Part shown: positions 11,993 to 59,445 of the stretch, one piece after another | Layout: each line of letters begins with the position of its first letter | Position numbering within the stretch: the stretch's first letter is position 1 | Source of the DNA: an uncultured Clostridia bacterium | GTDB taxonomy: Bacteria; Acidobacteriota; Blastocatellia; UBA7656 | Direction: 5' to 3' | Length of the DNA stretch: 64,000 nucleotides | Assembly: GCA_964468725.1 (NCBI GenBank) | Contig: CAYXVU010000003.1 | Coordinates: forward strand, 3,681-67,680 | Program-made: the position numbers and the translations under genes | Notes under the pieces: generated by a model | What the model was told of the DNA's origin: nothing | Database searches by the model: none | What the model saw: the letters and a program-made list of their open reading frames with translations, nothing else

Positions 11993-11996
11993 GGCG

Positions 11997-13652: not shown

Positions 13653-13656
13653 AGTT

Positions 13657-17100: not shown

Positions 17101-17102
17101 CT

Positions 17103-18254: not shown

Positions 18255-18351
18255 GGGCATGAAAGCTGAGATAGGAGAATCGGCGCAAAGGTTCAACCAG
18301 ATTTGCGGACGGTTCACAGAGTCGCATCCGCGAAGCGAAGAAGGAGGCTGT

Positions 18352-19206: not shown

Positions 19207-19211
19207 GCAAG

Positions 19212-22475: not shown

Positions 22476-22476
22476 G

Positions 22477-23295: not shown

Positions 23296-23355
23296 GTCTC
23301 CGCCTGTCTTTCGCCTGATTGAAGGTGTGATCGGGGACTCGCAACCTGACAAGTA

Positions 23356-23664
23356 ATGGTCGCACTCTTGACGGTAGCAGGCCTGAGTCTCTGCGGCGTA
23401 ATTCCGCTCGATCCATCAGTAGCGGCGGCGCAATCACTCATCGCTGTGCGCGGCGCGATTGTTCACACGGCGGCGGGTTTGCCCATCGCAAATGCGACGA
23501 TCATCGTGCGCGTGGGTAAGCTTGTTGCGGTCGGGCAAAACTTTGCTGTGCCCGCTGGCGCGCAAGTTTTTGAGGTTGCCGGGAAGACAATCGTCCGGGA
23601 CTGCTTGATGAGCCTTCGCACAGCGGCGCAAATCCCACAGATATCAATGATCCCTCTGGCGTAA
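23356..23664 (+). pseudogene. Remnant N-terminal fragment (~80 aa) of a secreted amidohydrolase, truncated
   Basis: Signal-like N-terminus, then IAVRGAIVHTAAGLPIANATIIVRVGKLVAVGQNFAVPAGAQVFEVAGKTIV. This is a typical amidohydrolase N-terminal beta-sandwich signature and is paralogous to the start of the 59520..61229 gene. The metal-binding HxH core is absent, and the fragment sits in an otherwise non-coding 513-nt gap. Confidence 0.35.
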
Positions 23665-23808
23665 CGGGTCGGTGCATCGGTCAAACCGGCTGAACTCGCT
23701 GGCTGGGACAGATGGTTCCGGCTTCATCCTTGCCGCAGCAAGTGGTAAGATGGGCGCTCGTGCGGGAGTCTCTTCTCTGACCGAAACCAACAACCGGAAA
23801 GGCCGACT

Positions 23809-25086: not shown

Positions 25087-26147
25087 TGCGTCAGTCGGTT
25101 TGCGCGGCGTTGATCTTGCTCGCTCTCGGTTGTTTTGCCAGTTGTGGGCGAGGCAGCGGCGTGCAGTCTTATTTGGAAGAGCCTTTTCCGAAACGGCTTT
25201 CGGACTGGCAGTTGTTCGTCAAAGGCGCGACGCCGCTGGTTCCCAATCAGCGCGTCGTGCCTTATGACCTGAACACGCCGCTGTTTTCCGATTATGCCAG
25301 CAAGTATCGCTTTGTGTGGATGCCGGAAGGGACGGCGGCGACCTATCACGAAGAGGAAGCCTTTGCCTTTCCGGTCGGCGCGATTCTTTCAAAGACTTTC
25401 GCCTATCCGGCAACGGATAGTTCGTCGGGCGAGCGCTTGATCGAAACGCGCTTGTTGGTGAATACCGAAAGCGGATGGGTATCGCTGCCTTATGTCTGGA
25501 ATGCTGAACAGACCGATGCGATACTGCAAATTGCAGGCAGTACAGCGCACATTGGCATGACGGATGCTAGCGGACAGGTGCAAACGATTCGTTACAACAT
25601 TCCCAATACCAATGAGTGCGCGCAGTGCCACGATCTCTCAAAGACGCTATTGCCGGTCGGAACCAAAGCGCGGCAACTCAATCGTGACTTTGCCTACCCG
25701 GACGGCACGGCCAATCAACTGGATTACTGGACGAAGATCGGCTATTTGACAGGCGCGCCGCCCTCCTCTGCCGCTCCGAAGTTGGCCGTGTGGAATGACT
25801 CGCAGAGCGCTTCAATGGAGGCGCGCGCACGCGCCTATCTGGATGGCAACTGCGCCCACTGTCACCGCGCCAACGGTTCGGCGGGCTATACGGCGTTTTT
25901 GCTCGATTGGAAAGAGACAGACCCGCGCCGGTTGGGGTATTGTAAGAGTCCGAACTCTGCGGGTTTCTCCGGCAATCTGGCTTTTGACGTTGTGCCGGGA
26001 AAACCGGATGAGTCCATTTTGATCTATCGTATGCAATCCACACGCGCCAAAGAGATGATGCCGGAGATTGGGCGCAGCACCATTCACCAGGAAGGCTTGG
26101 CCTTGATTCGAGAATGGGTCGCTTCGCTCAAGGGCAAATGTGAATGA
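25086..26147 (+). CDS. Dihaem c-type cytochrome lipoprotein, partner of the beta-helix protein
   Basis: Lipobox LALGCFASC. Two CxxCH motifs (CAQCH, CAHCH). Translationally coupled to 23809..25086. Confidence 0.65.
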   Translation: MRQSVCAALILLALGCFASCGRGSGVQSYLEEPFPKRLSDWQLFVKGATPLVPNQRVVPYDLNTPLFSDYASKYRFVWMPEGTAATYHEEEAFAFPVGAILSKTFAYPATDSSSGERLIETRLLVNTESGWVSLPYVWNAEQTDAILQIAGSTAHIGMTDASGQVQTIRYNIPNTNECAQCHDLSKTLLPVGTKARQLNRDFAYPDGTANQLDYWTKIGYLTGAPPSSAAPKLAVWNDSQSASMEARARAYLDGNCAHCHRANGSAGYTAFLLDWKETDPRRLGYCKSPNSAGFSGNLAFDVVPGKPDESILIYRMQSTRAKEMMPEIGRSTIHQEGLALIREWVASLKGKCE

Positions 26148-26498
26148 GCGCGCCGTCTCTGATTCGTTGATTTCTGTGCCCATAAGAGTTCTGCGACTGG
26201 CTGAGGGGCAGTCGGCGATCATCCTCACCGTCTTTGAAAGACCCAGCGGTTGCTTGCCGCTTGGCTGATGCTGCTGTCTTGCGACTGGGTTGCAAGACAG
26301 CGATTGGCAGTCATTCGAAAGGGTGTCAACTTTCCGCAACTCCGCAGCTTGGATTTCGTGATTTTGTCCGAGTCGTCCAACAGAGATGCAATTCTTCGGA
26401 CAGCGGAGCCATTGCCGTTTGAAATCTAAGCATCTGTTAGGTTGTAACTGTATTGACAGCAGCCGTGCCGGTCACCGCCGGTCGGAGGAGGAGAGGCT

Positions 26499-28754
26499 AT
26501 GGGAAGAAAAGTCATGAGTCTTTTCTTATGCGCGATGCTGAATTTTGTGACCTTTGCGCAAGAGCAAAAACCACAATCGGCTGACGAAAAACCTATTCGC
26601 ATCACTGCTGAGTTGGTGCAATTGGATGTCGTCGTCACCGACAAAAACGGGCAAGTAGTCAAGGGGCTGACCAAAGATGATTTCGAGGTCTTTGATAACG
26701 GCAAGAAGCAAAGCGTCAGTTTCTTTGAGTTCGTTGATTTAGTTGGCGGCAACAAGGCGGCGGATAAAGCGGCCCCTCAACCCGCAACTCCGGATAAAGA
26801 CCCTGACAATTTGACCGAAGCCGACACGAAACGGGTGATGGCTTTTTTGGTGGATGATTTGACCATTCGCACCGAAGACATGACTTTTGTGCGCGAGATG
26901 ATGGCGCGATTTGTTCGTGATCGCATGGGCGAGAATGATCTGGTCGCCATCATTCGCGTCGTCGGCGGGAAAGGGTTGCTGCAACAGTTCACCAATGATA
27001 AGCGGTTGCTGACCAAAGCCATTGAGTCACTGACGCCATCTTTGCACTTTGCCAGCCGCGCATCAGCAAGTGCCGAAACGGCAGACCTCGGCGGCAGACC
27101 TGCGGAACTCAACGCGCTTACGTCCTCCACCTTGCGTGGGACGGCTGCGGGTGGCGCTGCTGCCGGTGCGGAGGGCGAAGGGGAAGAGGCGGATTTGACG
27201 GCGATTGCCGATCAGATCGAACAGAATCAGGAACTCGGTAAAGATGTGATGGATGAGGCGCGATTGATAATGCGCGCTACGATGCTGTTTGGCTCGGCGG
27301 ACTACTGGGTGGATAGCATGAAAGAGTTGCCGGGGCGTAAATCGCTGGTCTTGATTTCGGGCGGCATTCCCTCTGTAGCCAATACAACGAATTTTGCTGC
27401 CACCGGCATTGATATTCCGGGCTTCATTGATAACCTGACTGACCGCGCGACGCGCGCTGGCGTCGCCATTCATACGATGGATGTTCGCGGACTTTCGGCC
27501 AATAGTGGTGTCGCCTCCTTCGCCGAAACGCCGGGAAAGAGCGCTCTGCCGACGACGATTGGCGAGTTGGCGCGGTCGGGCAGTTCGCGCTCCGCTGGAA
27601 CCGGATTCGGACGCGTGCCGGATGAACGATTATTGGGGACTGACACGCTGGAAGATCGTATGGGACTGCGACAACTGGCGTCGGCGACCGGCGGCATTGC
27701 GGTCTTTGATAAGAACAATTTTGGCGATGGATTGAACAAAATCATCGAAGCCAACCAATCCTACTATCTGCTTGCCTATCAGCCGATTGATACGAAATTC
27801 GATGGCAAGTTTCATAAGCTTGAAGTCAAAGTCAAACGCCCCGGTATGAAGGTCTATGACAAGCGCGGGTATTTTGCTCGCAAAGAGGCGGCGAATGAAA
27901 CTGCCCTGACCAAACAACAGCAAATTCTGGCGGCGATCAAATCACCGCTCGCCAAACGCGCCGTCAATGTCAACGCGCTGCTGACCTACCGCGCCGCCCC
28001 GCTGCCGAAAGCCGAAGGAAAAGACAAAGTCGCGCTTCACGGCGCGGTTGATATTCATATGTTGATTGACCCGAAGAACCTAAAGTTTGAAGCCGCGGGC
28101 GACAAGCAGCAAGTGACCTACGACGTGGCGGGCTTCGTCTTTGATGAGGTCGGGAAGATGCGCGGCGGTTTCAGCGAAACAGTTACCGTCAGTCTCGACC
28201 AAGAAGAGTATGAACGCGCGCGCGTCGAAGGTCTGAATTATACGGCGGACACGGTTTTGCCGCCGGGGGCGTATCAAGTGCGGCTTGCGGTGCGCGACAA
28301 TCGCAGTGGGGCCGTCGGCACAGTGCAAAAGTATGTCGAGATACCGAACCTCTCTGATGGCCGGTTGACTAGTAGCCATTTGTTGATTGTCGGAGCGCCG
28401 CCCAACAACACCGCATCAACAGAGACGACGGTCATCGGGGGCAATCGCCGCGTTGCCAGCAAGCTGGATTTACGCTACCTGATGATGCTCTACAACGTGA
28501 AGTTGAAAGACGGGAAGTCACAGGCCAAAGGGCAGATGGTCATCTCGCAAAACGGCAAAGAGTTGTACCGCGAAACCGATGCCGACTTGCAACAGATGGG
28601 TAACAATTCGACGACCTTCTTGAAGATGGGGCAGATCGGTTTATCGCGCGTCAAACCCGGACGCTATACGATCACCATCACCCTGACCGACCCGCTGGCC
28701 GACAAACGGTTGCAGTCCATCACCCGCAGCACCGATTTCATCGTTGTGAAGTGA
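26499..28754 (+). CDS. Secreted VWFA-related acidobacterial-domain protein (von Willebrand A-like)
   Basis: Signal peptide. The family-typical N-terminus is IRITAELVQLDVVVTDKNGQVVKGLTKDDFEVFDNGKKQ. A VWA-like middle region follows. RBS GGAGGAGGAG precedes the start. Confidence 0.65.
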   Translation: MGRKVMSLFLCAMLNFVTFAQEQKPQSADEKPIRITAELVQLDVVVTDKNGQVVKGLTKDDFEVFDNGKKQSVSFFEFVDLVGGNKAADKAAPQPATPDKDPDNLTEADTKRVMAFLVDDLTIRTEDMTFVREMMARFVRDRMGENDLVAIIRVVGGKGLLQQFTNDKRLLTKAIESLTPSLHFASRASASAETADLGGRPAELNALTSSTLRGTAAGGAAAGAEGEGEEADLTAIADQIEQNQELGKDVMDEARLIMRATMLFGSADYWVDSMKELPGRKSLVLISGGIPSVANTTNFAATGIDIPGFIDNLTDRATRAGVAIHTMDVRGLSANSGVASFAETPGKSALPTTIGELARSGSSRSAGTGFGRVPDERLLGTDTLEDRMGLRQLASATGGIAVFDKNNFGDGLNKIIEANQSYYLLAYQPIDTKFDGKFHKLEVKVKRPGMKVYDKRGYFARKEAANETALTKQQQILAAIKSPLAKRAVNVNALLTYRAAPLPKAEGKDKVALHGAVDIHMLIDPKNLKFEAAGDKQQVTYDVAGFVFDEVGKMRGGFSETVTVSLDQEEYERARVEGLNYTADTVLPPGAYQVRLAVRDNRSGAVGTVQKYVEIPNLSDGRLTSSHLLIVGAPPNNTASTETTVIGGNRRVASKLDLRYLMMLYNVKLKDGKSQAKGQMVISQNGKELYRETDADLQQMGNNSTTFLKMGQIGLSRVKPGRYTITITLTDPLADKRLQSITRSTDFIVVK

Positions 28755-29497
28755 GGAGGCGGCAGGCTGCGACGCAGGAGAGTGTGGAACACGACCATTC
28801 ACCGGAAGCCATCAGAGACCGGCTCTCTGCCGGGCCTCGACATAGTTACCTCCGCGATTGGGTCTATGGCGGGATAGATGGCGCGGTCACCACTTTCGCG
28901 GTCGTTGCGGGAGTGATCGGCGCCAGCCTCTCTCCGAAAGTCGTTCTCATCATCGGCGCGGCCAATATCTTGGCCGATGGGTTTTCCATGGCGGCCAGCA
29001 ACTATCTGGGAACCAAAACCGAACACGACGAGCGCGAACGCTTGAAGGCCATCGAACATCGCCACATTGACGCCTCCCCCGAAGGCGAGCGCGAAGAGAT
29101 TCGCCACATCTATCGAGAGAAAGGATTCGAAGAAGAGGAGTTGGAGCGCGTTGTCGAATTGATTACGGCTGACCGCGAGCGTTGGGTGCAGACCATGCTG
29201 GTTGAAGAGTACGGCTTGCCGATGGAGGTGCGCTCCGCCTGGCTGGCGGCGCTTTCGACCTTCAGCGCCTTTCTGATCTGCGGATTGGTTCCCTTGCTAC
29301 CGTTTCTGTTCGGGTGGAGTGAGGCTTTCGGGTTGTCTACGACGCTGACCGGGATTACCTTCTTTGCCATCGGCAGCGTGAAGAGTTTTTGGTCAACCGT
29401 CTCGTGGCTGCGCTCCGGCATCGAAACGTTGGCCGTTGGTTCGGCGGCTGCCGGACTTGCGTATGCGGTCGGCGTGCTGCTCGGCGGGCTGCAATGA
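28751..29497 (+). CDS. VIT1/CCC1-family iron/manganese transporter
   Basis: YLRDWVYGGIDGAVTTFAVVAG and later TM helices typical of VIT family members. GTG start overlapping the upstream stop. Confidence 0.75.
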   Translation: MRRRQAATQESVEHDHSPEAIRDRLSAGPRHSYLRDWVYGGIDGAVTTFAVVAGVIGASLSPKVVLIIGAANILADGFSMAASNYLGTKTEHDERERLKAIEHRHIDASPEGEREEIRHIYREKGFEEEELERVVELITADRERWVQTMLVEEYGLPMEVRSAWLAALSTFSAFLICGLVPLLPFLFGWSEAFGLSTTLTGITFFAIGSVKSFWSTVSWLRSGIETLAVGSAAAGLAYAVGVLLGGLQ

Positions 29498-29782
29498 ATG
29501 GCCAAAACGCAATCTGACGACGCCCGTCGAAACGGGTCACTGGTCACCAAACGATTGTCAGAATAACCCTTCGCGGTGTGAACTTCCGCACCCGATTGCG
29601 CGCTTTCACGCAATTTCACCCTACTCTCTTCCTGAACTTGTTGCTCTGATAGGGAATCATCACCGTTATGGGCGGCATAGTGATTGCAACCTTTACATCG
29701 TTCGGCATAGTAAGGATGAGGGTTGAGTTTCGCACGCCGGTATGTGCTTAGCAGGCAGGAAGCGGAAGGGAGGGACAGGGCG

Positions 29783-30505
29783 ATGAAATCATCTTTCGGA
29801 TTGTGCATGATCGAGAATTGTTTGGACTGTGAGCAGCGCACACACTATCTATTTTGCAATCTTTCTCCTGATTCGTTACAGGCGCTTGAAGAGATCAAAT
29901 ACACAACGCTCTATTCGAAGGGAACGGTTCTCTTTGTCGAAGGTCAGTCGGCGCGCGGCATCTTTATCCTCTGTCAGGGGCGCGTGAAGTTATCGACTAC
30001 GTCGAGTGATGGCAAGACCTTGATAACAGAGATTGCCGAAGGCGGGGAAGTGTTGGGGCTGAGCGCGACGGTTTCTGGCACAACCTACGAAGTGACCGCC
30101 GAAGCATTGGAATCTTGTCAGGTGAATTTCATTCGCCAAAGCGACTTTCGAACCTTTCTATCGGCGCATAACGACGCCGCCTTACGAGTTGGTGAACATC
30201 TCAGCCGCAACTATCAAACCGCGCACGAGCAGCGTCGAACCATTGGGCTGGCGCGCACCTCGCTGCAAAAGTTTGCCAACTTCCTGCTCGAATGGAGCGC
30301 GCAGCAGGGCAAGCCGACCGAACAAGGCGTGCGCTTGAAGATTACCTTGACGCACGAAGCCATCGCGCAAATGATCGGGGCATCGCGCGAGACTGTGACG
30401 CGACTCTTCGGCGATTTGAAGAGTCGCGGAGTGATTCACGTCAAAGGCTCAACCTTGCTGATTTGTGATCCCGACGTCCTCCAAGAATTAGCTCACCCCG
30501 GATAG
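29783..30505 (+). CDS. Crp/Fnr-family transcriptional regulator with an N-terminal four-Cys cluster (FNR-type Fe-S sensor candidate)
   Basis: cNMP-binding-like beta-roll plus C-terminal HTH (ETVTRLFGDLKSRGVIHVKGS). N-terminal C8/C13/C16/C25 (CMIENCLDCEQ...C). RBS GGGAGGG. Confidence 0.8.
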   Translation: MKSSFGLCMIENCLDCEQRTHYLFCNLSPDSLQALEEIKYTTLYSKGTVLFVEGQSARGIFILCQGRVKLSTTSSDGKTLITEIAEGGEVLGLSATVSGTTYEVTAEALESCQVNFIRQSDFRTFLSAHNDAALRVGEHLSRNYQTAHEQRRTIGLARTSLQKFANFLLEWSAQQGKPTEQGVRLKITLTHEAIAQMIGASRETVTRLFGDLKSRGVIHVKGSTLLICDPDVLQELAHPG

Positions 30506-30986
30506 AAAATCAGCGACCGCCTGCCCTGACCGCTTGCTTTCCGATATGTGACCTGGATTACGTGGAGCCGTGATGGCGCGCACTGACTATCGCGGGTTCA
30601 GGAGGGTAAACTAATTGTCGTTTTTAGCGCTTGTCGCGTGGCTTTCCGTTGCCTGTGACCATGAGGACATCTGCGCCGTTTTGATGATTTAACGATGAAT
30701 CCGATTTCCGTCACATCCAATGGAAAACGGCTATCGTAGTGAGGCTTGGCCTCACAGTCATTCATCGGGTCAGGGACGCTGGCTGGCGTGTGGTGAATCA
30801 TCCGACTATGTGGCAGGGTCAGTTGCGGTTGACCTCTGACCGCACCCCGAGCAAGTCGGGACGGGGTACTGCCCAAACGAAGAAACGAATGACAAAGTTG
30901 AAGCCTATCGCACCCTCGCCGTAGAGCCGACTTGGCGCCGCGAACGCCTCCACTCCTCAGCCGCCTGCCTGACATCACCAAAAGAG

Positions 30987-32450
30987 GTGTCAGCTATGAA
31001 ATACAAGCCTGTTATCTTTGCCCTTCTCACTCTGTTTCTGTTGCTGCCAACGCACCATCATTTTAGCCAAAATCAATCCGCCGCCCGCACCGAAACGAAT
31101 TGGGGATTGCATACGACAACCTTTACGACTCCGCACGGACAAGTTCGGGTCTATCTGCCGGATGACTTGTCCGTCGGCGATGCCATATCGGGAACGGTGA
31201 TGGCTGAACCGGCGGGACAAACGGCAGATGAGCGCCGGAAGAACGGCGATGAGTTGAACGGCTATGTCGTAGAGTTGGGAGACCGCAAGGTCACGACCTC
31301 GGAAAAGCAGTTTCAATGGATGGTTCCGGCAGACGCGACGACGGGCCTGGTGCAACTGATCCTCCGCAATAACGGTAAGCGGGAGATTGGCAAAACGGCA
31401 GTTCCGGTCTCTCAGTTCTCCCAAGCGGCTGAAGGCTGGCCTACCGGAACGGGACAGGATTTTTTCTTACCCCATGCCGCTCAAGCGGGTAGACCGATTC
31501 AAATCTCTGGTCGGTTTGACGGGAAGTGGAATACGACCCGCCTGCAAATTGGCGGGCAAGAGGCGCGCATTTTGGCTGAGTCTCCGCGCAAGATCGTCGG
31601 AGAAAATCCGCAAGAGAGGGTCGGGCAGATCGAGATTGAGGTGCGTGAAGGCAGCCGCATAACTCGGGGGAAGTTACACAACCTCGGCGTCCGACTCAGT
31701 TCGCCCAAGCTCAACTTGATAAGAGGCGAGCAGACAACCCTGATGATAGAAGTGACCGGACTGGTTGGACTTGAGCAAAACATCCCTTTGGTTATTGAAA
31801 ACCGAACGCCGCAAGTTGTCTCTCTGGAAGGCGGCGATGTCTTGACGGTCGTCATTGACCCGCAAAAGGTCTCGGCCACAGACCTCTACAGGCTCACTCT
31901 ACCCCTGATCGGGGTCAGCACCGGGAGTTTCTCGATTCAGGCTTCCGTACAATCGGAAATCCCGCCGCCCTACTCCTGTTGCGAAAGGGAGATTCGCTTG
32001 AAAGCGGACGCCAAAGGCGACTCAGATGGCAAAACGATGATTATCAACAATCAGACGCAAAGAGTCATATCTATCCGCATCAAGGTGCCGATTCAATTTG
32101 ATTGTCAGGAAGAGAGAGAAAAGGATTGCATCGGCAAGTTCAACGCCTCCATCCAATACGAGCCGCGCCAATATAACAAAGCGATGGATAACTATGACGT
32201 GAAACCCGAAACCTCGAGCTTGAGAAACAGTTGGAGCAAAGCCAAATGCGATGGTCACAGCCACTCGGATACGGTGACCGTATTGTGGGAAGGAACCTAT
32301 CCGGGAACGCATGCCGTGAAAGGAACGCTGAAGCTGGAACTGACGACCGCGAAGGAGAAAGGACAAATCAATCACCTCCTTTCCCTTGATGTGGATGCCA
32401 GTGCTGACAAAGTAACCTTGAAAAACGCCCGCCTGGATGCCTTGAAGTAG
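30987..32450 (+). CDS. Secreted hypothetical protein
   Basis: 487-aa ORF with an N-terminal signal peptide and good coding periodicity. No recognisable domain. Confidence 0.5.
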   Translation: MSAMKYKPVIFALLTLFLLLPTHHHFSQNQSAARTETNWGLHTTTFTTPHGQVRVYLPDDLSVGDAISGTVMAEPAGQTADERRKNGDELNGYVVELGDRKVTTSEKQFQWMVPADATTGLVQLILRNNGKREIGKTAVPVSQFSQAAEGWPTGTGQDFFLPHAAQAGRPIQISGRFDGKWNTTRLQIGGQEARILAESPRKIVGENPQERVGQIEIEVREGSRITRGKLHNLGVRLSSPKLNLIRGEQTTLMIEVTGLVGLEQNIPLVIENRTPQVVSLEGGDVLTVVIDPQKVSATDLYRLTLPLIGVSTGSFSIQASVQSEIPPPYSCCEREIRLKADAKGDSDGKTMIINNQTQRVISIRIKVPIQFDCQEEREKDCIGKFNASIQYEPRQYNKAMDNYDVKPETSSLRNSWSKAKCDGHSHSDTVTVLWEGTYPGTHAVKGTLKLELTTAKEKGQINHLLSLDVDASADKVTLKNARLDALK

Positions 32451-32482
32451 AGAAGGCGCTTCAAATTGTCTGGTACAGGAGG

Positions 32483-33079
32483 ATGGATATGAAGAACTTG
32501 TCTAAAAGCAAGATCAGAGTTACCGGATGGATGCTGGGATTCCTCACCACTCTGCCCCTCACTCTTATGGCCCAAGGTGGAGGAAGAGTGCCATCCGCCG
32601 AACAAGCCCTTACTCGTGAACTCAGCGCGGCCCTACTCGAAGCCGCTCAGAAACAACATCTCAACCTTGATCTGGCCGGTTTGGTTTACGTCGGTCAGCG
32701 AGGCACCTTAGTGGCCAACGTTGGCGTGAGCGGAGTTGAACGGTTGCGCCTGGAAGACCTGGCGCGCGGCGCGGATGTTTTCTTCTTCCATCTTGCAACC
32801 AATCACAAATCGGCTGTACCGCCGGGCTTTTACAAAGTTCGTCTATCACGAGAAGCGCAATCGCAGACGCCCATGAGCCAACGCGCGATCAATACCGGAG
32901 GCTGGCAGGCCAAGTTGATTGATGACACTGGCAAGGTGGTCGCCACGCGCTCGGCTCAGGTCGGCTCAGGAGAGGAGACGCAACGGATCAGATGGACGGC
33001 GGGTTTTGGCGAATGCGGTTTTTACATTGATGCCCATTGGAGTTCGATTACGGTCACCGTTTGTATCGGTGTGGATTGA
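32483..33079 (+). CDS. Secreted hypothetical protein
   Basis: 198 aa with a signal peptide (LTTLPLTLMAQG). Confidence 0.45.
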   Translation: MDMKNLSKSKIRVTGWMLGFLTTLPLTLMAQGGGRVPSAEQALTRELSAALLEAAQKQHLNLDLAGLVYVGQRGTLVANVGVSGVERLRLEDLARGADVFFFHLATNHKSAVPPGFYKVRLSREAQSQTPMSQRAINTGGWQAKLIDDTGKVVATRSAQVGSGEETQRIRWTAGFGECGFYIDAHWSSITVTVCIGVD

Positions 33080-33247
33080 ATGACCCTCGCCAAGTCGGCG
33101 ACTATGCAATGGCGACTCGGGGGCGTCCGTTTGTCGGCAGGCGGCAATGTGATGGCGATCACAGGTGAGCGTGATCGTGGATACCGATTTTTTGCCGCCG
33201 ATTTTTTATGCTCATCCCAGCTAATTGAAACTTTTCGGCGGAGGATG

Positions 33248-33646
33248 AGTATGAAACGTCTTTTTATCATTGGGTCGCTGGTCTTATTGGTAACCGCCTT
33301 TGCTTCTTCCTTCGTTCCGCGCAGCCAAGCGAGCGAGTCGGAACGGCAAAGCGCCGTGTTTGAATTCAAAGAGCGCGTCAAACTCAGAGGGGTCTATCTG
33401 ACAGGCAAATGCCTTTTCGTTCACGATGAAAAATTGATGGCTGCAGGGCAGCCGTGTACGGAAATCTATAGCTATGAGGGCAATCGCCGGGGCGAATTGT
33501 TGACCTCTTTTCATTGCACGCCGGTGGCGCGTGGCAAAGTCTCGCAATTCACGCTGACCAGCGTTTGGCGCGGCGCACCGCACAACATCCGCGAAGTGCG
33601 CGAATATCAATTTGCCGGTAGCACCGAAGGGCATCAGGTTCCTTGA
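33248..33646 (+). CDS. Small secreted hypothetical protein
   Basis: ~132 aa counted from MSMKRLFIIGSLVLLVTAFA. It is followed by a canonical terminator. Confidence 0.45.
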   Translation, partial: SMKRLFIIGSLVLLVTAFASSFVPRSQASESERQSAVFEFKERVKLRGVYLTGKCLFVHDEKLMAAGQPCTEIYSYEGNRRGELLTSFHCTPVARGKVSQFTLTSVWRGAPHNIREVREYQFAGSTEGHQVP

Positions 33647-33720
33647 AGATTGGATGATAGAGAAGCAGGAGTCGAATCCTACTGGTTTGCAACTGTGAGT
33701 GGATCGTCTGTCTCAGAAGT

Positions 33721-33758
33721 CCTGCCGCAACCGGGCGGCAGGACATTTTTTATTCTTT
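33721..33758 (+). terminator. Rho-independent terminator (CCTGCCGC-AACCGG-GCGGCAGG followed by ACATTTTTTATTCTTT)
   Basis: 8-bp GC-rich stem, 6-nt loop, T-tract. It lies downstream of the 33248..33646 gene. Confidence 0.65.
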
Positions 33759-33896
33759 GCAGACCATCGAGGCCGTCGCCCCTCGCCAAACGGCGTGACG
33801 CGAATCACCCGCGACGGTGACCGGTGGCACAGCGCCCGGCAGACGATTTGCGCTCCAATTACCCATGAGAAACGCCAGACTCTCGGGGGACGAATC

Positions 33897-34367
33897 ATGA
33901 TGGTAGAGAGATGGGAAAGCGACTGTTTTGTAGTTGGCAAGAGCCACAGCCGATTGGTGGAGTCTTCGTTACAGGGCGCGCCAGTATATGTGGTGGCGGC
34001 ATTCGTACGTGCAGCGATGATTGGGGAGACGAGCGCCGTCGCGCGGCTGTTGGCCTGCGGTCTGGACGTGAATGTGGCGGATGAGAACGGTAGGACGGCA
34101 TTGCTCGAAGCGGCCTTTGGCGGGCATGTCGAGACGGTGCGGACACTGCTGGCCAAAGATGCAGACGTCAACGCTTGCGATTCGGATGGCTGGACGCCGC
34201 TGATGGAGGCGGCATCGAAAGGGCATACCGAGATTGTAAAGGACTTGCTCGCTCAGGGTGCGAATCCAAAGGCGCGGACGAAGACGGGTTGCACGGTATG
34301 GCAAGCGGCAGCAAAGAGTCATGCGGAGATTGGGCGTCTGCTTGCCGATGCCGGTGCGAAAGGATAA
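33897..34367 (+). CDS. Ankyrin-repeat protein (three or more ANK repeats)
   Basis: GRTALLEAAFGGHVETVRTLLAKDADVNACDSDGWTPLMEAASKGHTEIVKDLLAQGANP. The start was chosen downstream of the terminator, with GGGGGA upstream. Confidence 0.65.
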   Translation: MMVERWESDCFVVGKSHSRLVESSLQGAPVYVVAAFVRAAMIGETSAVARLLACGLDVNVADENGRTALLEAAFGGHVETVRTLLAKDADVNACDSDGWTPLMEAASKGHTEIVKDLLAQGANPKARTKTGCTVWQAAAKSHAEIGRLLADAGAKG

Positions 34368-34375
34368 TTGCAAAG

Positions 34376-34930
34376 ATGTCGTTTGCCATCTACAACCTCA
34401 AACATGAACATCGGATCATCGAAAGAGCCTTGCGCGCGTTGGAGGGCATCTGTTTGCGACTCGAAGCAGGAGATGCCGTACCGCTCGACGCGCTGATGCA
34501 GGCGGTGGAATTCATCGGCACATTTGCCGATTCCTATCACCACGGCAAAGAGGAAGAGTTTCTCTTTCCGGCGCTTGAACGAGCGGGCATCGAGCGGGCG
34601 GGCGGAGCGTTGGGCGCGATTGACCATCAACATGAACTCGAACGCGAATTGACTTCGGGCTTGAATCGCGCCATTCGCGCTTGCCAACTCGGCAATGAAG
34701 GCGCGCAGGAATTATTCGTCACGGACGCGCGGCGTTATGTGGATTTGATGATCCGACACATGCAGATGGAAGACAGTATGCTCTTTCGACTGGCGGACGA
34801 AGTGCTCAGCGAAGAGGAGCACGACCAACTTCAGCAAGCGTTCCGACAGGCACAGTCCGAATTGGGGATGGCCGGTGTGGAGCGCTATGAACGTTTGGCT
34901 GCCGAATTGGAACAGCAGTGGAGCGTTTGA
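34376..34930 (+). CDS. Hemerythrin-like (HHE cation-binding) domain protein
   Basis: Starts MSFAIYNLKHEHRIIERAL... It has His/Glu di-iron ligand spacing (H..E; HHGKEEEFLFP; H..E). Confidence 0.65.
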   Translation: MSFAIYNLKHEHRIIERALRALEGICLRLEAGDAVPLDALMQAVEFIGTFADSYHHGKEEEFLFPALERAGIERAGGALGAIDHQHELERELTSGLNRAIRACQLGNEGAQELFVTDARRYVDLMIRHMQMEDSMLFRLADEVLSEEEHDQLQQAFRQAQSELGMAGVERYERLAAELEQQWSV

Positions 34931-34990
34931 GCCAACGGTTGATGAGCGCCGACTGAACGGCGACTCGTTTAGACGCGAGTCGCAGGTGGC

Positions 34991-35068
34991 TTGCCGCAGG
35001 GCTGGGGAACCCTTTCTGCGGCAGGTGTTGCCGGATGGCCTGCATCAAGCATGAACTTGATGCAGGCC
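34991..35068 (+). terminator. Two consecutive strong hairpins downstream of the hemerythrin gene, including a perfect 13-bp-arm palindrome GGCCTGCATCAAG-CATGAA-CTTGATGCAGGCC (35037..35068)
   Basis: The palindromes were read directly from the sequence. The second is followed by a T-containing stretch, ATTACGTTTCTGG. Confidence 0.45.
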
Positions 35069-35184
35069 ATTACGTTTCTGGCAATCATTCAAGCGGCTCG
35101 CTATCCCATAGCAATTCGACTTGAGAAAATCGGCTCAACATTGTGAAATACAGGCCGTCATTTTTGTTCGCTTGAGGCAAGACT

Positions 35185-35637
35185 ATGAGAGCACGCACAC
35201 TACAAAGCATCATTCTGGGCATCGGGCTAGGGGTGATTGTCGGCATCGGCGGTTATACCTTCATCTATGCGAAGGGCTATTCCTATCTCACCAACGATCC
35301 GGCTTCGTGTGCGAACTGTCACGTCATGCAAGATCACTACGATGGTTGGATCAAATCGAGCCATCGGTCGGTGGCGACTTGCAATGATTGCCACACGCCG
35401 CCGGGTGCCATAGCCAAGTATGCAACGAAAGCCTCAAACGGCTTTTGGCACTCGTTCGCTTTTACGACCGGACGATTCCCCGAACCGCTGCGCATCAAAA
35501 CCCATAACCGCGAGGTCACCGAACAAGCCTGCCGGAAATGTCATCAAGAGATTGTTGATGCCATCGAAGGGCAGCACGCAGGCGCACAGGAGTTGTCCTG
35601 TCTGCGTTGTCACGGTTCGGTTGGCCATCTGAGATAG
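35185..35637 (+). CDS. nrfH: NrfH, membrane-anchored tetrahaem cytochrome c (NapC/NirT family) quinol dehydrogenase
   Basis: N-terminal TM helix plus four CxxCH motifs (CANCH, CNDCH, CRKCH, CLRCH) in ~150 aa. Confidence 0.85.
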   Translation: MRARTLQSIILGIGLGVIVGIGGYTFIYAKGYSYLTNDPASCANCHVMQDHYDGWIKSSHRSVATCNDCHTPPGAIAKYATKASNGFWHSFAFTTGRFPEPLRIKTHNREVTEQACRKCHQEIVDAIEGQHAGAQELSCLRCHGSVGHLR

Positions 35638-35752
35638 TCGGTGATTGTCCTTTGCGCTTTGCCGATCACCGGCAATTGACCAGCGGTTCGGAGAGTAAAT
35701 TGTCGGGCGCTGCTTGTACCCGACGACGAAATTCAAATAGGAGAGACAAGGT

Positions 35753-37150
35753 ATGGATGAAGCAGAAACGCCAGGCGCGCCTGCCCGCGCGCCGCAACAA
35801 CGTACCCTAAAGATCATCGTCATTACCGCTTTTATTTCGTTGCTCGTTGCCATTGGCGGCACAGCGTTGTTGGTCAATATCCTCGAACGCAAACAGGAAG
35901 GCCGCAATCCTTTCTATCGCGTCGTCGAATTGACCGATGAGGTGGATGATGCAGAGGTGTGGGGGAAAAATTTCCCGCTGCAATATGACGCTTACCGCCG
36001 CACCGTAGATCAAATTCGCACGCGCTTTGGCGGCAGCGAAGCCATACCACGCACGCCGACGGCAGCCGACCCACGCTCGATTGTCTCGCAATCGCGCCTC
36101 GAAGAAGACCCGCGATTGAAGATGATGTGGGCCGGGTATGCATTCGCAAAGGATTTCCGCGAAGAGCGCGGCCACGCTTTCATGCTTGACGATCAAACCT
36201 TCACCGAACGTCAGGTCGTCGTCAAACAACCAGGCACCTGCATGCATTGTCACGCATCGGTCTATGTGCCCTACAAACGGCTCGGCGACGGCGATTTGAT
36301 GAAGGGATTCGAGAAGATGAATCAGATGCCCTATAGCGAGGCGCGTCAGTTGGTCAGCCATCCGGTTACGTGTATTGACTGCCATGACCCCACCACCATG
36401 CAACTGCGTGTGACCCGCCCAGGTTTTATCGAAGGCATCGCGGCTCTGAAAGCCGGTCAAGGCATCGCCAACTATGATGTCAATCGGCAGGCGACGCGCC
36501 AAGAGATGCGCAGTTACGTCTGTGGGCAGTGCCACGTCGAATACTATTTCAAAGGGCCGGAGAAGCGTCTCGTCTATCCCTGGTCGAAGGGGTTGAAAGT
36601 GGATGAGATCATGGCCTATTACGAAGAGACGAAGCATAAAGATTGGACGCATGCCGAAAGCGGCGCTGAAGTGTTGAAAGCGCAACATCCGGAATTTGAA
36701 TTATGGAATCAGGGCATTCACGCGCGTTCCGGTGTGGCTTGCGCCGATTGCCACATGCCCTACAAGCGTGAAGGGGCACTCAAGATCAGCGATCATCACG
36801 TTCGCAGCCCGCTGCTCAACATCAGCTTTGCCTGTCAAACCTGTCACAAATGGCCGGAAGAAGAGTTGCGCGCTCGCGTCGAAACAATTCAGGAGCGTAC
36901 CTTCCGACTGCGCAACTTGGCGATGGACGCGCTGATCGAACTCATCAATGAGATCAAAGCCGCGCGCGCGGCGGGGAAGACCGACGATCAGCTTGCCGAA
37001 GCGCGGAGCTATCAGCGCAAGGCGCAGTTCTATCTGGATTTTGTGGAGGCGGAAAACTCAACCGGCTTTCATGCCCCGCAGGAAGCGGCGCGCATTCTCG
37101 GCGAGTCCATTGACTTTTCGCGGCGCGGACAGACAGCGTTGCGAAAATAG
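35753..37150 (+). CDS. nrfA: NrfA, pentahaem cytochrome c nitrite reductase (ammonia-forming); all five haems are CxxCH
   Basis: CMHCH, CIDCH, CGQCH, CADCH, CQTCH. Its size and position after nrfH fit. Strong RBS. Confidence 0.85.
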   Translation: MDEAETPGAPARAPQQRTLKIIVITAFISLLVAIGGTALLVNILERKQEGRNPFYRVVELTDEVDDAEVWGKNFPLQYDAYRRTVDQIRTRFGGSEAIPRTPTAADPRSIVSQSRLEEDPRLKMMWAGYAFAKDFREERGHAFMLDDQTFTERQVVVKQPGTCMHCHASVYVPYKRLGDGDLMKGFEKMNQMPYSEARQLVSHPVTCIDCHDPTTMQLRVTRPGFIEGIAALKAGQGIANYDVNRQATRQEMRSYVCGQCHVEYYFKGPEKRLVYPWSKGLKVDEIMAYYEETKHKDWTHAESGAEVLKAQHPEFELWNQGIHARSGVACADCHMPYKREGALKISDHHVRSPLLNISFACQTCHKWPEEELRARVETIQERTFRLRNLAMDALIELINEIKAARAAGKTDDQLAEARSYQRKAQFYLDFVEAENSTGFHAPQEAARILGESIDFSRRGQTALRK

Positions 37151-54589: not shown

Positions 54590-55747
54590 CTAGCGATTGG
54601 GTGCAGGGTGCGGTGCGATGGCATCCCACATGCCCAGGCCGACGACTCGGTGCGGAGGGGATGCTTCCAGTTCCAACATCACGCCGCGCCATATTTTTTC
54701 GCGCGATGAATGGACCCATACGGCATAGGTGTGAGCGCGGTCATGTGTAAAGCCGTAGACTTCGTAGGTTCCATACTGATTCTGTAGTTCCTGCCAGCCT
54801 TTGGCGCGCTCTTGCGGCGATTTGCCTTCCGGGTGTGGCGGGCGATGATGAGTGTAAAACTCGGCGATCTGCGATTCTTGACCGGAGTTGAACGCCTTGA
54901 AAAATGCTGCTGCGCGCTGCCCGAACGGCGTGGCTGGCCAGCGATTCGATTTGATCCGTTGCATCGCTGCCCACCGTGAATCCGGCGGGTCTGCGGCCAT
55001 CGTGTCGAGTATCCATTTGCGCCGCGTTGAGACTCGCGCATAGCCATCAAAGGTCATGTACTTACAAGCGGTTCCTTCTTTGGAGTCGCCGGAATTGAAA
55101 GAGCTAACCCCGATGAGATAGAGCATGCCATTCTCTTCATAAAAAGCGGGCCCGCCGCTATCACCGGGAGCGCTGAACCCCTCGAGGTCAGTACCTAAAG
55201 GCGGCGCGTCAAATACCATCAATAGCGAGTTCTCCAGCGCGCCTTCGATGCGATTGGTTGCGCCGCGCAACTGCCCGCGCTCTTTGACTGGACCGGTCAA
55301 ACCGGTTCCCGTCATCCCGCGACCGACAATGGTGACGATCTTTCCTGCTTCGTCTTTTTTGCCATACAAAGCGACGGGTGTGATATGGGTTACCGGCTCT
55401 GTCAGCTTCAGCAAGGCAAGATCGGCAGAGCTATCTACTGCGTTTTTCTCTCTTGCCGGATGAATGATCGCTTTTTCAATCTCGTAGCGTTTGCCATCAA
55501 ACACAACATAGAGGCTCGTAAACGGAGGATTGCCTTCGATGGTGTGGGCTGCGGTTAGTGCCCAACGCGGCGCAATCAAGGTGCAAGCGACTTGTTCTTG
55601 CAGATGGCCGACCATCGGGTATTTTGCGCCGAGGGCAAGATAGAGTTGATCGTCCCGGTCGTGACGAATAATGATTGAAAAGCCATCGAATGCTGAACAG
55701 GTGATGAGACAAACCAAGAAGCAGGCTGTGCAGAATTTTTTCGACAT
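54590..55747 (-). CDS. Secreted trypsin-like (S1) serine peptidase with a C-terminal extension
   Basis: Signal peptide. ALTAAHT histidine motif and GDSGGP active-site serine motif. Confidence 0.75.
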   Translation of the reverse strand: MSKKFCTACFLVCLITCSAFDGFSIIIRHDRDDQLYLALGAKYPMVGHLQEQVACTLIAPRWALTAAHTIEGNPPFTSLYVVFDGKRYEIEKAIIHPAREKNAVDSSADLALLKLTEPVTHITPVALYGKKDEAGKIVTIVGRGMTGTGLTGPVKERGQLRGATNRIEGALENSLLMVFDAPPLGTDLEGFSAPGDSGGPAFYEENGMLYLIGVSSFNSGDSKEGTACKYMTFDGYARVSTRRKWILDTMAADPPDSRWAAMQRIKSNRWPATPFGQRAAAFFKAFNSGQESQIAEFYTHHRPPHPEGKSPQERAKGWQELQNQYGTYEVYGFTHDRAHTYAVWVHSSREKIWRGVMLELEASPPHRVVGLGMWDAIAPHPAPNR

Positions 55748-55866
55748 GTGACCCCGCAGATACGAAGATAGCTTGAGCCATTCCCCGAAGAGCAAGCTCC
55801 GCAAAAGATTACAACTTGATGCGGCCATCGTCTTGTAAACGTGTAGCGTCTTGTAAGCCGGTAGCC

Positions 55867-56679
55867 TCAGCCGAGCAGTTGGCGATAGGCGGCGGGGGTG
55901 AAACCGATTTGCGATTTGAATACTTTGGTGAAATGCGCCTGATCGTAGAACCCGAGGCTCAAAGCAATCTCGCTGATCGAACGCTGATTTTGACCGAGTT
56001 CGCTGCGCGCCGCTTCGATGCGCAACCTGCGAACGTATTCTCCTACCGAGCAACCGAACGACTTGCGAAACGCACGCGCTAGATGGGTCGCATGCACTCC
56101 GGCAAGGGCAGTCAAATCCTGCAATGAGAAATCATCTCTGAAGTGATCGTGCAGATACTCTTTAACCCGTTTGAGCCAGGCGGGCATCCCGCGTTGCTGT
56201 TTCTCTTCTTGACGCGCAGCTTCGACCAGTAATTCCAGTGCTAGCGATTCGAGGGCCAACCCATTGACTTGATCGTTCTGACGGAACTCCCGACAGAGGC
56301 GAATGGCGGTTTGCAATGGCGCACCAGCAGAGAACTGTTTCTCGTCATCCAGAAAGCTTAGGTTTTGCGAAACGTGACGAAACGTATCCGGCTTCAGCCA
56401 GAAGGCGATTTCGCGCCTACCTGCGGCGGAGATTTGGTCAGCGTGCTTGCGTCCTTGAGGGTGAAATGACACCAGCCAAGGAGGGTACTGAACGGCGCGG
56501 CGATTATGAAATTGCGTGTAATGCCCTTCGACGCCGATGCTGATATGGAAGTCTTCGTGCACGTGATAAGAGATGTGTTGAGCCGCGAAATGAATCTCCT
56601 GAAAGAGGAACCCGGCCACCTCTTTACTGGCAAGCAATGTCCCGAACGATTCACCAAGTTTTAATACCTTGAGCATCAC
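55867..56679 (-). CDS. AraC-family transcriptional regulator
   Basis: C-terminal AraC HTH (two helix-turn-helix units). Confidence 0.8.
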   Translation of the reverse strand: MMLKVLKLGESFGTLLASKEVAGFLFQEIHFAAQHISYHVHEDFHISIGVEGHYTQFHNRRAVQYPPWLVSFHPQGRKHADQISAAGRREIAFWLKPDTFRHVSQNLSFLDDEKQFSAGAPLQTAIRLCREFRQNDQVNGLALESLALELLVEAARQEEKQQRGMPAWLKRVKEYLHDHFRDDFSLQDLTALAGVHATHLARAFRKSFGCSVGEYVRRLRIEAARSELGQNQRSISEIALSLGFYDQAHFTKVFKSQIGFTPAAYRQLLG

Positions 56680-56850: not shown

Positions 56851-57483
56851 ATGGATTTGACCGGCAACACCTTTATCAAGGGGCCTGTGGGCAGGCTCGA
56901 AGCGATTCTCAAAGAACCCAATGACGCGATCCGGCGCGTCGCTATCATCTGTCATCCGCACCCGCTCTTCGGCGGAACCATGCATAACAAGGTCGTCTAT
57001 CGCATCGCCAAAGCGTTTCAGGAAGCCGGATTTGCGGCGCTGCGTTTCAACTTTCGCGGCACGGGGCGCAGCGAAGGCGGACACGATCACGGACGCGGCG
57101 AACAAGACGACTTGCGCGCCGCCATCGCTTTTATGCAAGCGAAGCATCCGAATACGGAATTGTGGCTGGCGGGCTTCTCGTTCGGCGCAAGCGTCACGCT
57201 GCGCGTCGGCTGTCATGACGATAGTGCGCGCGCTCTCGTCATCGCCGGGTTGCCGGTTTCGAAGTATGATTTCACGCGCATTGCGGTTTGCGACAAGCCG
57301 CGCCTGTTCATACAAGGCGCGCAAGATGAATTCGGCTCGGTCACTGATATGCAGCGATTCGTTGACACGCTGACGGAACCGAAGCAGTTGGCGATTATTG
57401 ACGACGCCGATCACTTCTTCGAAGGTCGGCTCGACGAAGTGTCGCAAGCGGTTGCCAAATTCATCGCTTCGGTTGAGAGCTAA
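56851..57483 (+). CDS. Alpha/beta-fold hydrolase
   Basis: 210 aa. The nucleophile elbow GFSFG is a G-x-S-x-G variant. Asp/His lie downstream. Confidence 0.65.
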   Translation: MDLTGNTFIKGPVGRLEAILKEPNDAIRRVAIICHPHPLFGGTMHNKVVYRIAKAFQEAGFAALRFNFRGTGRSEGGHDHGRGEQDDLRAAIAFMQAKHPNTELWLAGFSFGASVTLRVGCHDDSARALVIAGLPVSKYDFTRIAVCDKPRLFIQGAQDEFGSVTDMQRFVDTLTEPKQLAIIDDADHFFEGRLDEVSQAVAKFIASVES

Positions 57484-57642
57484 AGGATTGAGCTTGTAAC
57501 GTTATTTTTATGTATAGCGTATTCCGTCTCTAGGGCAAGCTGTCGAGGCGTCAGAACTCTTGATCGCAAAGGTGCAAAGGGAGTAAGGGAGACGACAACG
57601 CGACGGCTCGGTTTCGTTGCGATTTTGAAGTGTGGATGTGAT

Positions 57643-59184
57643 ATGTCGAAAAGAAAGATTGTGAAGCGCATCAAGGTTACGGTCATCGCTTTGGTGATGA
57701 GTGTCGCGGCGGGCTACTGGTCGTTATCGCGCCCGGCTGCGGCGAGCGAAGCGGCACAAGGGCGAGGCCGCGTTGAGTTCGTTGCCATCTCGACACCGAT
57801 GAACGAACGCTTTGGAGTAGATGACGGCGCGTCGCTGGTGGTGCATTTCAGCAGCAGCATTCATGGCAATCTGGAACCGTGTGGCTGAAAAGAGCCGCGA
57901 CTCGGCGGACTGGCGCGGCGCGTCAGCTACATAAAAGCGTTTCAAGAGAAGTTCAAAGGGCTACCAACACTGGCAGCGGATGCGGGTTATTACTTTGCCG
58001 ATGAGCGCAGTCAGCACGGCGAGTTGCGCGCCGACGTGACGGAGAAGAATCAACACGTCATGCGCGCTTACGAGCAGTTCCAAGTGGACGCGCTCAATAT
58101 GACGCCGCGCGACTTGCCATTTTTCGCACGCGTGATGACCCCGGCCTTTGCGGCTGCGAACCCTACGGATGCCGCATTCTTCAAGCGCGTCATATCGGCA
58201 AATATCACAACGGCTTCGACCGACCGCATCGCGCCGCAACGATTCATCGTGCGCGAAATCGCAGACCGCAATGCCAACGCGAAATCGAAATCGTTCAAAG
58301 TCGCTTTTGTCGGATTTAGCGAAGCCGCAGGCGACTTGCCCGCTGGATTCAGCATCGCCGACCCCGTTACCACTGCACGCGCAGTTGTTCCCGAAGCGCG
58401 ACGCAGCGCCGACTTTGTCATCGCTCTTGCCTATGTCACACCGGAGACTGCGACTCGACTGGCGCGCGAGGTGCAAGGCATAGATGCCATCATCGTTTGC
58501 CATCCGATGGCGAATGAAACCCTTTTCACTGCGCCGATGCAATTCGGACAGACGCAAGTCTTGTTCGCTTCGTTTGAAACGCGTATGCTCGGCGAGTTGT
58601 ATATCTATCGTGACGCGCAGGGTAAGTTCTCGACCAAAGCGCGATTCATCTCCATTGATCCGCTCGTCCCGGATGATGCGATTGCGGCTCAAACAGCCGC
58701 CGCAGCAACGAACGCCGAAAGCGAAAAGCGACAAGGGTTGAAAACGGTATTGGAAAACTGGCTGGCGCAGACGCGTCTGAGAAGAAGACCGGAAACCAAT
58801 GCAACATCTGAAGCGACGCTGCAGTACGTCACTGCCGGAGCCTGCGCGCAATGCCATACGGAGCAGTACATCAAATGGTCAGCGACCAAGCATGCACACA
58901 CGACCGACCCGCTGGTGGCGAAATCATACGAGTTCGATGCCGATTGTCTGGCTTGTCACGCAAGCGGTTGGGATCAGACGAAGGCTTTCAACATCGCCGA
59001 CCTTCCCAAGTTGCAGCAAGTTCAGTGTGAGCAATGTCACGGCGCAGGGAGCGAGCATGCGGCTAAACCGGCCAAAGGCTACGGTCGCGTGAGCAATTGG
59101 CAAGCCGTTTGCACAGCCTGCCACACTGCGAAGATCAGTCCGAATTTTAATGCCCGGACTGCATGGGAGAAGATTAAACACTAA
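57643..59184 (+). CDS. Fusion of a degenerate 5'-nucleotidase/metallophosphoesterase-like domain with a C-terminal tetrahaem cytochrome c, interrupted by one in-frame TGA at 57889..57891 (selenocysteine, readthrough, sequencing error or pseudogene)
   Basis: The two ORFs 57625..57888 and 58024..59184 are in the same frame. The translation is continuous and homology-consistent across the TGA (...HGNLEPCG*KEPRLGGLARRVSYIKAF...). The C-terminus has CAQCH, CLACH, CEQCH and CTACH. Confidence 0.45.
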
Positions 59185-59320: not shown

Positions 59321-59445
59321 GAGGAATTCAAGAATTCAGCATTCAAGAATTCAGCAGGGGAAATCATGCGGCTTCGCCGTTTCCCTATTCATCCTGAATT
59401 CCTCCTGAATTCCTCGAATTCCCTGAATTCTCTGAATTTCTCCCC
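59321..59445. repeat. Low-GC block of direct and inverted tandem repeats built on GAATTC-containing units (seven EcoRI sites in ~110 bp) between convergent genes
   Basis: GGAGGAATTCAAGAATTCAGCATTCAAGAATTCAGCAGG ... CCTGAATTCCTCCTGAATTCCTCGAATTCCCTGAATTCTCTGAATTTC. The left and right halves are reverse complements of each other. Confidence 0.7.

Follow-up and report, generated by a model that had tools for sequence, protein, structure and literature searches.

The in-frame TGA at codon 82 of a 513-codon Blastocatellia gene very probably specifies selenocysteine (Sec), decoded through SelB and a short hairpin downstream (hairpin 2), in a putatively exported 513-residue protein of the PCGU family. 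Comparative evidence backs the recoding of UGA82, the conservation of the downstream hairpin and a single two-domain product. The PCGU selenoprotein family is already known; what is new is an overlooked and mis-annotated member clade in soil acidobacteria. The gene was analysed as part of a 64-kb stretch of DNA, referred to here as the window, and its features are listed in Table 1.

Table 1. Positions in the window of the predicted selenoprotein gene, its domains and motifs, the downstream hairpins and the upstream neighbour.
Feature	Position	Strand	Remarks
Alpha/beta hydrolase, 210 aa, upstream neighbour	56851..57483	+	Pfam Hydrolase_4 / Abhydrolase_11; context
Complete predicted selenoprotein gene	57643..59184	+	513 codons including putative Sec82; ATG 57643, TAA 59182-59184
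Predicted N-terminal signal peptide, MSKRKIVKRIKVTVIALVMSVAAGYWSLSRPAAA/SE	57643..57744	+	Assigned by eye from the sequence; comparable N-terminus in orthologues
Degenerate 5'-nucleotidase/UshA/SoxB-like (calcineurin-fold) domain	57820..58677	+	Profile and structure matches; metal-ligand motifs largely lost
Cys80-Gly81-Sec82 (TGT GGC TGA), putative family CxU motif	57880..57888	+	C, G and TGA invariant in 31/31 Blastocatellia-type sequences
Hairpin 1, CCGC-GACUCG-GCGG	57895..57908	+	4 bp; helix 89.5% paired across orthologues
Hairpin 2, probable SECIS core, CUGGCGC-GGC-GCGUCAG	57910..57926	+	7 bp, GGC loop; 98.6% of cells paired
C-terminal tetrahaem cytochrome c domain (c554-like)	58825..59181	+	PF13435, four CXXCH
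CXXCH motifs	58843-58857, 58945-58959, 59026-59040, 59110-59124	+	Residues 401-405, 435-439, 462-466, 490-494

Exactly one internal stop was found in the frame, the TGA at 57886-57888, and the 513 codons contain no frameshift or further stop. The initial annotation had correctly recognized a single in-frame TGA at this site, although the coordinate that it gave, 57889, is the base just after the codon. The peptide around codon 82 reads ...SSSIHGNLEPCG[TGA]KEPRLGGLARRVSYIKAF..., or, with a longer stretch up to the TGA, HFSSSIHGNLEPCG-[TGA]-KEPRLGGLARRVSYIKAF. A mechanical listing of open reading frames cuts the gene in two, giving an 87-aa ORF (57625-57888) and a 386-aa ORF (58024-59184). TGA serves as an ordinary stop in 15 of the 36 Pfam-supported ORFs of the window, which rules out genome-wide reassignment of the codon. 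A screen of the 64-kb window for other in-frame TGA candidates returned just gene junctions and overlapping-frame noise.

We scanned one genome per species (GTDB), which yielded 79 loci. In all 30 Blastocatellia-type loci with the N-terminal part, the frame runs upstream through a stop at exactly the codon-82 position. Adding the window and a further four, distant loci gave a set of 35 sequences matching the pattern CG-stop...GG[LM]xRR, and the stop at the aligned position was TGA in all 35, never TAA or TAG, far more consistently than chance would allow. Six further distant loci identified with a looser pattern also had TGA, so that 10 distant loci carry it in total. The TGA-bearing relatives are labelled Fermentibacteria, Gemmatimonadota, Desulfobacteraceae, Deltaproteobacteria, Anaerolineales and others. 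The peptide is conserved on both sides of the stop, as HGxLEPCG*KPPRxGGLARRVSY (asterisk, stop).

The initial annotation had named Cys, Trp and Sec as the residues to look for at this position in orthologues. The alignment gave TGA throughout the Blastocatellia-type loci and Cys in three relatives: TGT in the close relative L080, the Logan contig that carries the protein P0002, and TGT and TGC, respectively, in the distant loci L051 (a Nitrosomonas locus) and L063. Mean pairwise differences at codon positions 1, 2 and 3 were 0.21, 0.19 and 0.55 in the 27 codons upstream of the TGA and 0.27, 0.17 and 0.47 downstream of it; by this measure, both flanks bear the coding signature of purifying selection. 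A conserved TGA, conserved flanking sequence and Cys-containing homologues, as looked for in a bacterial selenoprotein gene, were thus all found here. Two earlier suggestions were borne out by the same comparison. Translation does stay consistent with homology across the TGA, as orthologues align on both sides and the match to the family model NF041198 is full-length, and the potential C-x-U motif after Cys-Gly recurs as an invariant Cys-Gly-TGA in orthologues, with Cys forms in relatives.

Covariation downstream of the TGA was assessed on 31 distinct 54-nt segments running from the TGA onward and aligned without gaps. The structure tested pairs columns 10-13 with 20-23 (hairpin 1) and columns 25-31 with 35-41 around the GGC loop (hairpin 2). 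In total, 95.3% of the cells were paired, against 25-53% when the partners were slid by 1-3 columns. There were 19 double-change cells, and none of 500 shuffles reached the observed covariation. Pair 30-36 in hairpin 2 occurs as A-U (20 sequences), G-C (6), C-G (3), G-U (1) and U-A (1), and pair 12-21 in hairpin 1 as C-G (20) and G-C (7), at synonymous sites. Each covarying column falls on the third base of a codon for a conserved residue (pair 12-21, Pro and Gly; pair 30-36, Ala/Thr and Arg), indicating that the covariation lies in the RNA and not in the protein. Furthermore, codons +8, +10 and +12, counted from the UGA, were invariant or nearly so at their third base, the Gly codon preceding the UGA was GGC in 30 of 31 sequences, and RNAalifold recovered hairpin 2 independently. 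A structurally conserved stem-loop therefore stands shortly downstream of the UGA, with hairpin 2 beginning 21 nt and its loop 28 nt past that codon.

The distribution of hairpin 2 was also compared between Sec and Cys forms. Among distant loci, the Sec forms L034 and L037 keep the hairpin and its GGC loop, whereas the Cys forms L051 and L063 lack the hairpin although they keep GGLAR. Two other loci, L046 and L053, carry another hairpin, with a GGUCUG loop. In L080, both hairpins are intact beside the TGT, which suggests either that Cys replaced Sec very recently or that the codon was misread.

The initial annotation had drawn attention to a SECIS-like hairpin formed by GCCGCG and CGCGGC. A conserved, covarying hairpin does exist downstream of the UGA, namely hairpin 2, but the one named is specific to this sequence: the inverted repeat (57894-57899 with 57914-57919) is present in the window, and across orthologues it was 55% paired with zero covariation, so it was rejected as a conserved element. 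Folded as a single sequence, the 60 nt after the UGA did no better than shuffles (z = 0.19). Folding energy alone is uninformative at this UGA, and covariation is needed. In the bSECISearch consensus, the apical loop has G as its first base and lies 16-37 nt from the UGA. Like bacterial SECIS elements of the fdhF type and this consensus, hairpin 2 is an intragenic stem-loop soon after the UGA whose loop starts with G. In contrast to them, its loop has just 3 nt (GGC), which is small for a textbook SECIS, and two small hairpins follow one another here in place of one long hairpin. An Rfam scan of the whole window gave no match, and elsewhere in the protein family a different hairpin occurs, that of L046 and L053.

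By the standard bacterial route, hairpin 2 would recruit SelB with Sec-tRNA(Sec) to UGA82, and hairpin 1 may act as a small helper preceding it. There is a slim chance that UGA82 is instead read through without Sec, either as Cys by a selC*-type opal-suppressor tRNA(Cys) or as Trp by hairpin-stimulated near-cognate readthrough. SelC* tRNA(Cys) opal suppressors have been described, as have unusual allo-tRNAs in Acidobacteria (PMC5389517), and in relatives the site functionally tolerates Cys. Sec machinery was not found in the window or across ~700 kb of related loci: a Pfam scan of the 39 window ORFs returned no selA, selB or selD, ARAGORN detected no tRNA-Sec in the window and 60 related loci, and tblastn with an approximate E. 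coli SelD query gave no match in the window or any of the loci. However, SelC* has been reported from Firmicutes, Thermodesulfobacteria, Nitrospirae and Proteobacteria, not from Acidobacteria (PMC5389517), while selenoproteins are on record for Acidobacteria (PMC1794560). Moreover, the motif and the family match a catalogued selenoprotein, and a UGA kept across phyla together with a SECIS-type hairpin is the classic signature of Sec.

The family assignment was made with NCBIfam, where the best match was NF041198 (UshA_like_PCGU, "UshA-like (seleno)protein"; E 6.6e-63). The window protein scored 213.1 bits, below the curated cutoff of 275 bits, and its alignment reaches position 517 of the 519-position model, which includes the cytochrome part; over the proteins compared, matches extend to positions 517-519. 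Scores were 198-223 bits for Blastocatellia-type sequences, 226-243 bits for the Desulfobacteraceae type, 190 bits for the Nitrosomonas Cys form and 267 bits for L033. The loci L034 (Fermentibacteria, 328 bits) and L037 (Gemmatimonadota, 298 bits) pass the cutoff, and the motif is common to them and the window. Judged by sequence, the window protein is homologous over its full length but belongs to a divergent branch outside the reach of the curated model.

Several features tie the window protein to NF041198. The (P)CG-U/C motif after motif I appears as EPCG-U, with Cys-Gly-Sec in the same place; the nucleotidase-like domain precedes a C-terminal multihaem domain, in the same tetrahaem architecture; and both Sec and Cys forms occur. 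The initial annotation had considered the fusion to a multihaem cytochrome unusual, which it is not, since the NF041198 model already spans the cytochrome. On the other hand, the Pro in the name "PCGU" is variable in the Blastocatellia clade (P 17, T 9, V 5), the metallophosphoesterase motifs have decayed further there (L034 and L037 still have GD, H and GH), and the clade is not labelled as selenoprotein in public records. A second model, NF049981 ("UshA-like (seleno)protein family 2"), also describes a 5'-nucleotidase-like selenoprotein and matched weakly over residues 65-165, including the Sec region. It differs in its score (42 bits against a cutoff of 140), in its 262-position model without a cytochrome and in having CxxU, not CxU.

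The family is widespread and has been catalogued since the 2008 GOS survey, in which Zhang & Gladyshev listed "COG0737 UshA-like, CxU" as a selenoprotein family (PMC2398784); the UshA-like CxU family, or NF041198, appears again in reviews of 2022 and 2026 (PMC9312934, PMC13188914). We found no experiment on any UshA-like PCGU member in the literature on the family, and a full-text literature search for Blastocatellia together with selenocysteine returned no paper. The conserved TGA and hairpin reported here indicate that Blastocatellia very probably use selenocysteine.

The public annotation of this clade was examined with a protein search, which returned 134 homologues, almost all from Blastocatellia/Acidobacteriota. 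Among the 120 listed, gene calls were shortened in 118, most of which begin shortly past the TGA and cover 73-83% of the query. We aligned ten of the shortened homologues; their first residues are "(M)GGLARR" or "MARR", slightly downstream of the TGA position. The GenBank call on this contig, P0001, is likewise a 374-aa 3' fragment, and many public entries are "multiheme c-type cytochrome" proteins of ~415-430 aa. Just two of the listed homologues are full-length, P0002, with Cys at the TGA position, and P0003, with a 13-residue deletion of the CG(U/C) loop. The exclusion of the clade by the NF041198 cutoff probably accounts for these 3'-only calls.

Taken at face value, such calls, which annotate just the part downstream of the TGA, would fit a true stop at codon 82, with an exported 81-residue peptide and an internally started downstream cytochrome as the products. 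This reading is barely credible. Attachment of c-type haem requires export, and the shortened product has no signal peptide, so no matured cytochrome c could result from it. The downstream "start" codons belong to the conserved GGLARR stretch, the 5'-nucleotidase fold depends on both motif I and the upstream strand, and the Cys-containing relatives are single full-length proteins. Simple termination also does not explain why TGA alone is found at this position. As it stands, GenBank/JGI shorten the genes of a class-level clade and name them just "multiheme c-type cytochrome"; this affects no fewer than 30 species genomes and, among the 120 protein clusters listed, ~118. A lower NF041198 cutoff or an added clade model would mend the annotation, and the SECIS-type hairpin offers a concrete check.

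The initial annotation had also considered a sequencing error (TGG or TGC) and a recent pseudogene. Together with an assembly error or a misread TGT, these have next to no likelihood left: a single base in a metagenome-type assembly is concerned and the Logan contig L080 does have TGT at the site, but the same TGA in 30 other independent Blastocatellia-type assemblies and 10 distant loci excludes them, as do purifying selection on both flanks and a frame free of other stops and frameshifts.

We then considered what the UGA82-containing protein, read as a selenoprotein, might do. Its sole Pfam match was PF13435 (Cytochrome_C554; 48.1 bits against a cutoff of 20.8) at residues 400-467; Pfam Metallophos (PF00149) gave no match in the window protein. 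The Cys and His of all four CXXCH motifs are invariant in homologues, and the motifs and the HMM match agree in identifying a multihaem c-type cytochrome. In a PDB sequence profile search, the region from GGLARR on resembled CpdB/YfkN-type nucleotidases (3jyf, 3gve, 5eqv), and the C-terminus matched the multihaem cytochromes 6i5b and 1bvb (cytochrome c554). The four CXXCH motifs, PF13435 and these two structures are thus common ground with cytochrome c554 (Nitrosomonas CycA) and related multihaem cytochromes, but here the cytochrome forms the C-terminal domain of a larger enzyme-like protein instead of carrying electrons on its own.

To assess the N-terminal fold, we used an AlphaFold model of P0002, the full-length Cys orthologue, which is 47% identical to the window protein. 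The model has pLDDT >90 over the nucleotidase-like domain, and Foldseek with this model gave E-values of 4e-17 to 1e-15 to 3ivd, 1ush, 3jyf and 2wdc, with E. coli 5'-nucleotidase, CpdB and SoxB among the structures matched, identifying a calcineurin/5'-nucleotidase fold. Confidence was low at the CG(U/C) loop (pLDDT <50, residues 67-76) and in the haem domain, so the geometry from Sec to haem is not readable from the model.

Although the window protein shares the fold of its N-terminal domain with the two-metal calcineurin-fold hydrolases 5'-nucleotidase/UshA, CpdB and SoxB (a thiosulfohydrolase), it is without their metal and catalytic residues. Across the 31-sequence full-length alignment, motif I is mostly G-D-T-H-G (D in 21/31, H in 24/31) and in the window S-S-I-H-G, with Ser for the motif I Asp. 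Motif II is D-S-G-Y, with GY for GD, and a possible motif III His position has His in 17/31 and Arg in the window. At the metallophosphoesterase motifs (DxH, GD, GNHE, H, GHxH), the window protein reads SIH, GY and NMTPRD; motifs IV and V are without His, and the ligand set is lacking. The family consensus, compared with the CpdB profile, is likewise without the GD Asp, the GNHE Asn-His and the motif IV/V His. The initial annotation was right that the D/H/N residues are lost in this protein; orthologues keep a variable subset. Conversely, the predicted Sec and the four haems are absent from UshA, CpdB and SoxB. The invariant residues in the 31-sequence alignment are C80, G81, U82, P85, G88, G89, L90, R92, R93, Y96 and N152, and Cys80-Gly-Sec82 sits eight residues past the motif I His.

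From established cytochrome c maturation, the protein would be exported via its N-terminal signal and the haems attached in the periplasm. The Cys-Gly-Sec loop would lie directly after the motif I remnant, beside the former two-metal site. Given this location and its invariance, Cys80-Gly-Sec82 is most likely the site of redox chemistry in a periplasmic enzyme, acting either as a selenenylsulfide or as a pair of ligands, and the four haems may connect it to the respiratory chain as electron relays. Almost no hydrolase site is left in the Blastocatellia version, which points to the Cys-Gly-Sec loop and the haems as its working parts. A further step, possible but on balance doubtful, would be that the two-metal site is gone altogether and that Cys-Gly-Sec is the sole catalytic centre, trading electrons directly with the four haems in a haem-wired periplasmic selenoenzyme with a chemistry not yet described. 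If so, its substrate might be a sulfur, selenium or other chalcogen compound, and the enzyme would be encoded by a single-copy core gene conserved throughout an entire class of soil bacteria, most of them aerobic.

Finally, we examined the surroundings of the gene. A scan for promoter and terminator consensus sequences gave nothing above shuffled background. With one exception, no conserved neighbours were found, and the remaining genes around the orthologues in Blastocatellia and other phyla are unrelated housekeeping genes, so the gene looks like a stand-alone unit, vertically inherited within Blastocatellia. The exception is the alpha/beta hydrolase: in more than 20 loci of Blastocatellia, tblastn placed a counterpart with 61-70% identity upstream of the orthologous gene.

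The codon directly 5′ of the recoded UGA was examined in the 31 Blastocatellia-type sequences aligned from this position. Although Gly is four-fold degenerate, the Gly codon preceding the UGA (window 57883-57885 and the orthologous positions) was almost always the same, being GGC in 30 of the 31. This pattern across the alignment suggests that the nucleotide immediately preceding the recoded codon is under constraint.

The hairpin that follows the UGA differed in L046 and L053, two loci encoding Deltaproteobacteria-type members of the same protein family. Within the 60 nt inspected from the TGA (from position 5067 in L046 and 841 in L053), both carried CGGGC-GGUCUG-GCCCG, whose GGUC-type loop resembles that of the classic fdhF SECIS. 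Because this hairpin differs, the SECIS varies among branches of one protein family.

Two full-length homologues departed from the Sec-containing form. In P0002, a close orthologue encoded on Logan contig SRR29826502_2071548 (L080), codon 74 was TGT (Cys) rather than TGA, and both hairpins 3′ of this codon were preserved base for base. Either Sec was replaced by Cys very recently in this orthologue, or the TGT codon is a read error. In P0003, from a 2476-b contig of JGI sample 3300067032, the protein alignment revealed an apparent 13-residue in-frame deletion, with the entire CG-Sec loop gone.

Four GTDB representative MAGs titled "uncultured Clostridia bacterium" (loci L003, L018, L019, and L036) encoded Blastocatellia-type orthologues with 44-52% identity, and the Blastocatellia-type neighbouring hydrolase was also found in L018 and L019. 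Judging from these sequences, the four titles are probably mislabelled.

The M20 peptidase and alpha/beta hydrolase genes upstream of the main gene adjoin in loci L011, L018, L022, and L027, whereas in the window they are separated by a protease and regulator gene pair. From this gene order, the pair looks like a local insertion in this genome. Just 3′ of the main gene, before the convergent amidohydrolase gene, the 15-nt unit attcaagaattcagc occurs in two tandem copies.

Elsewhere in the window, a gene cluster was predicted to encode a type-II DMSO-reductase-family molybdoenzyme, with an architecture similar to those of the Nar, Nxr, Ser, Clr, and Ebd enzymes. A set of genes related to nitrogen oxides was also observed at 21723-37150.

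Coordinates of features accompanying the main gene in the window
Feature	Window position	Content
Molybdoenzyme cluster	10439-19862	cytochrome b; c-type cytochrome; 1224-aa molybdopterin subunit; 4Fe-4S subunit; EB_dh-type haem subunit; NarJ-like chaperone
ScdA/hemerythrin	21723-22475	
NosD-like beta-helix protein	23809-25086	
Crp/Fnr regulator	29723-30505	
NrfA cytochrome c552 nitrite reductase	35753-37150	
Gene pair between M20 peptidase and alpha/beta hydrolase	54590-56679	trypsin-like protease; AraC-family regulator
Tandem repeat	59326-59355
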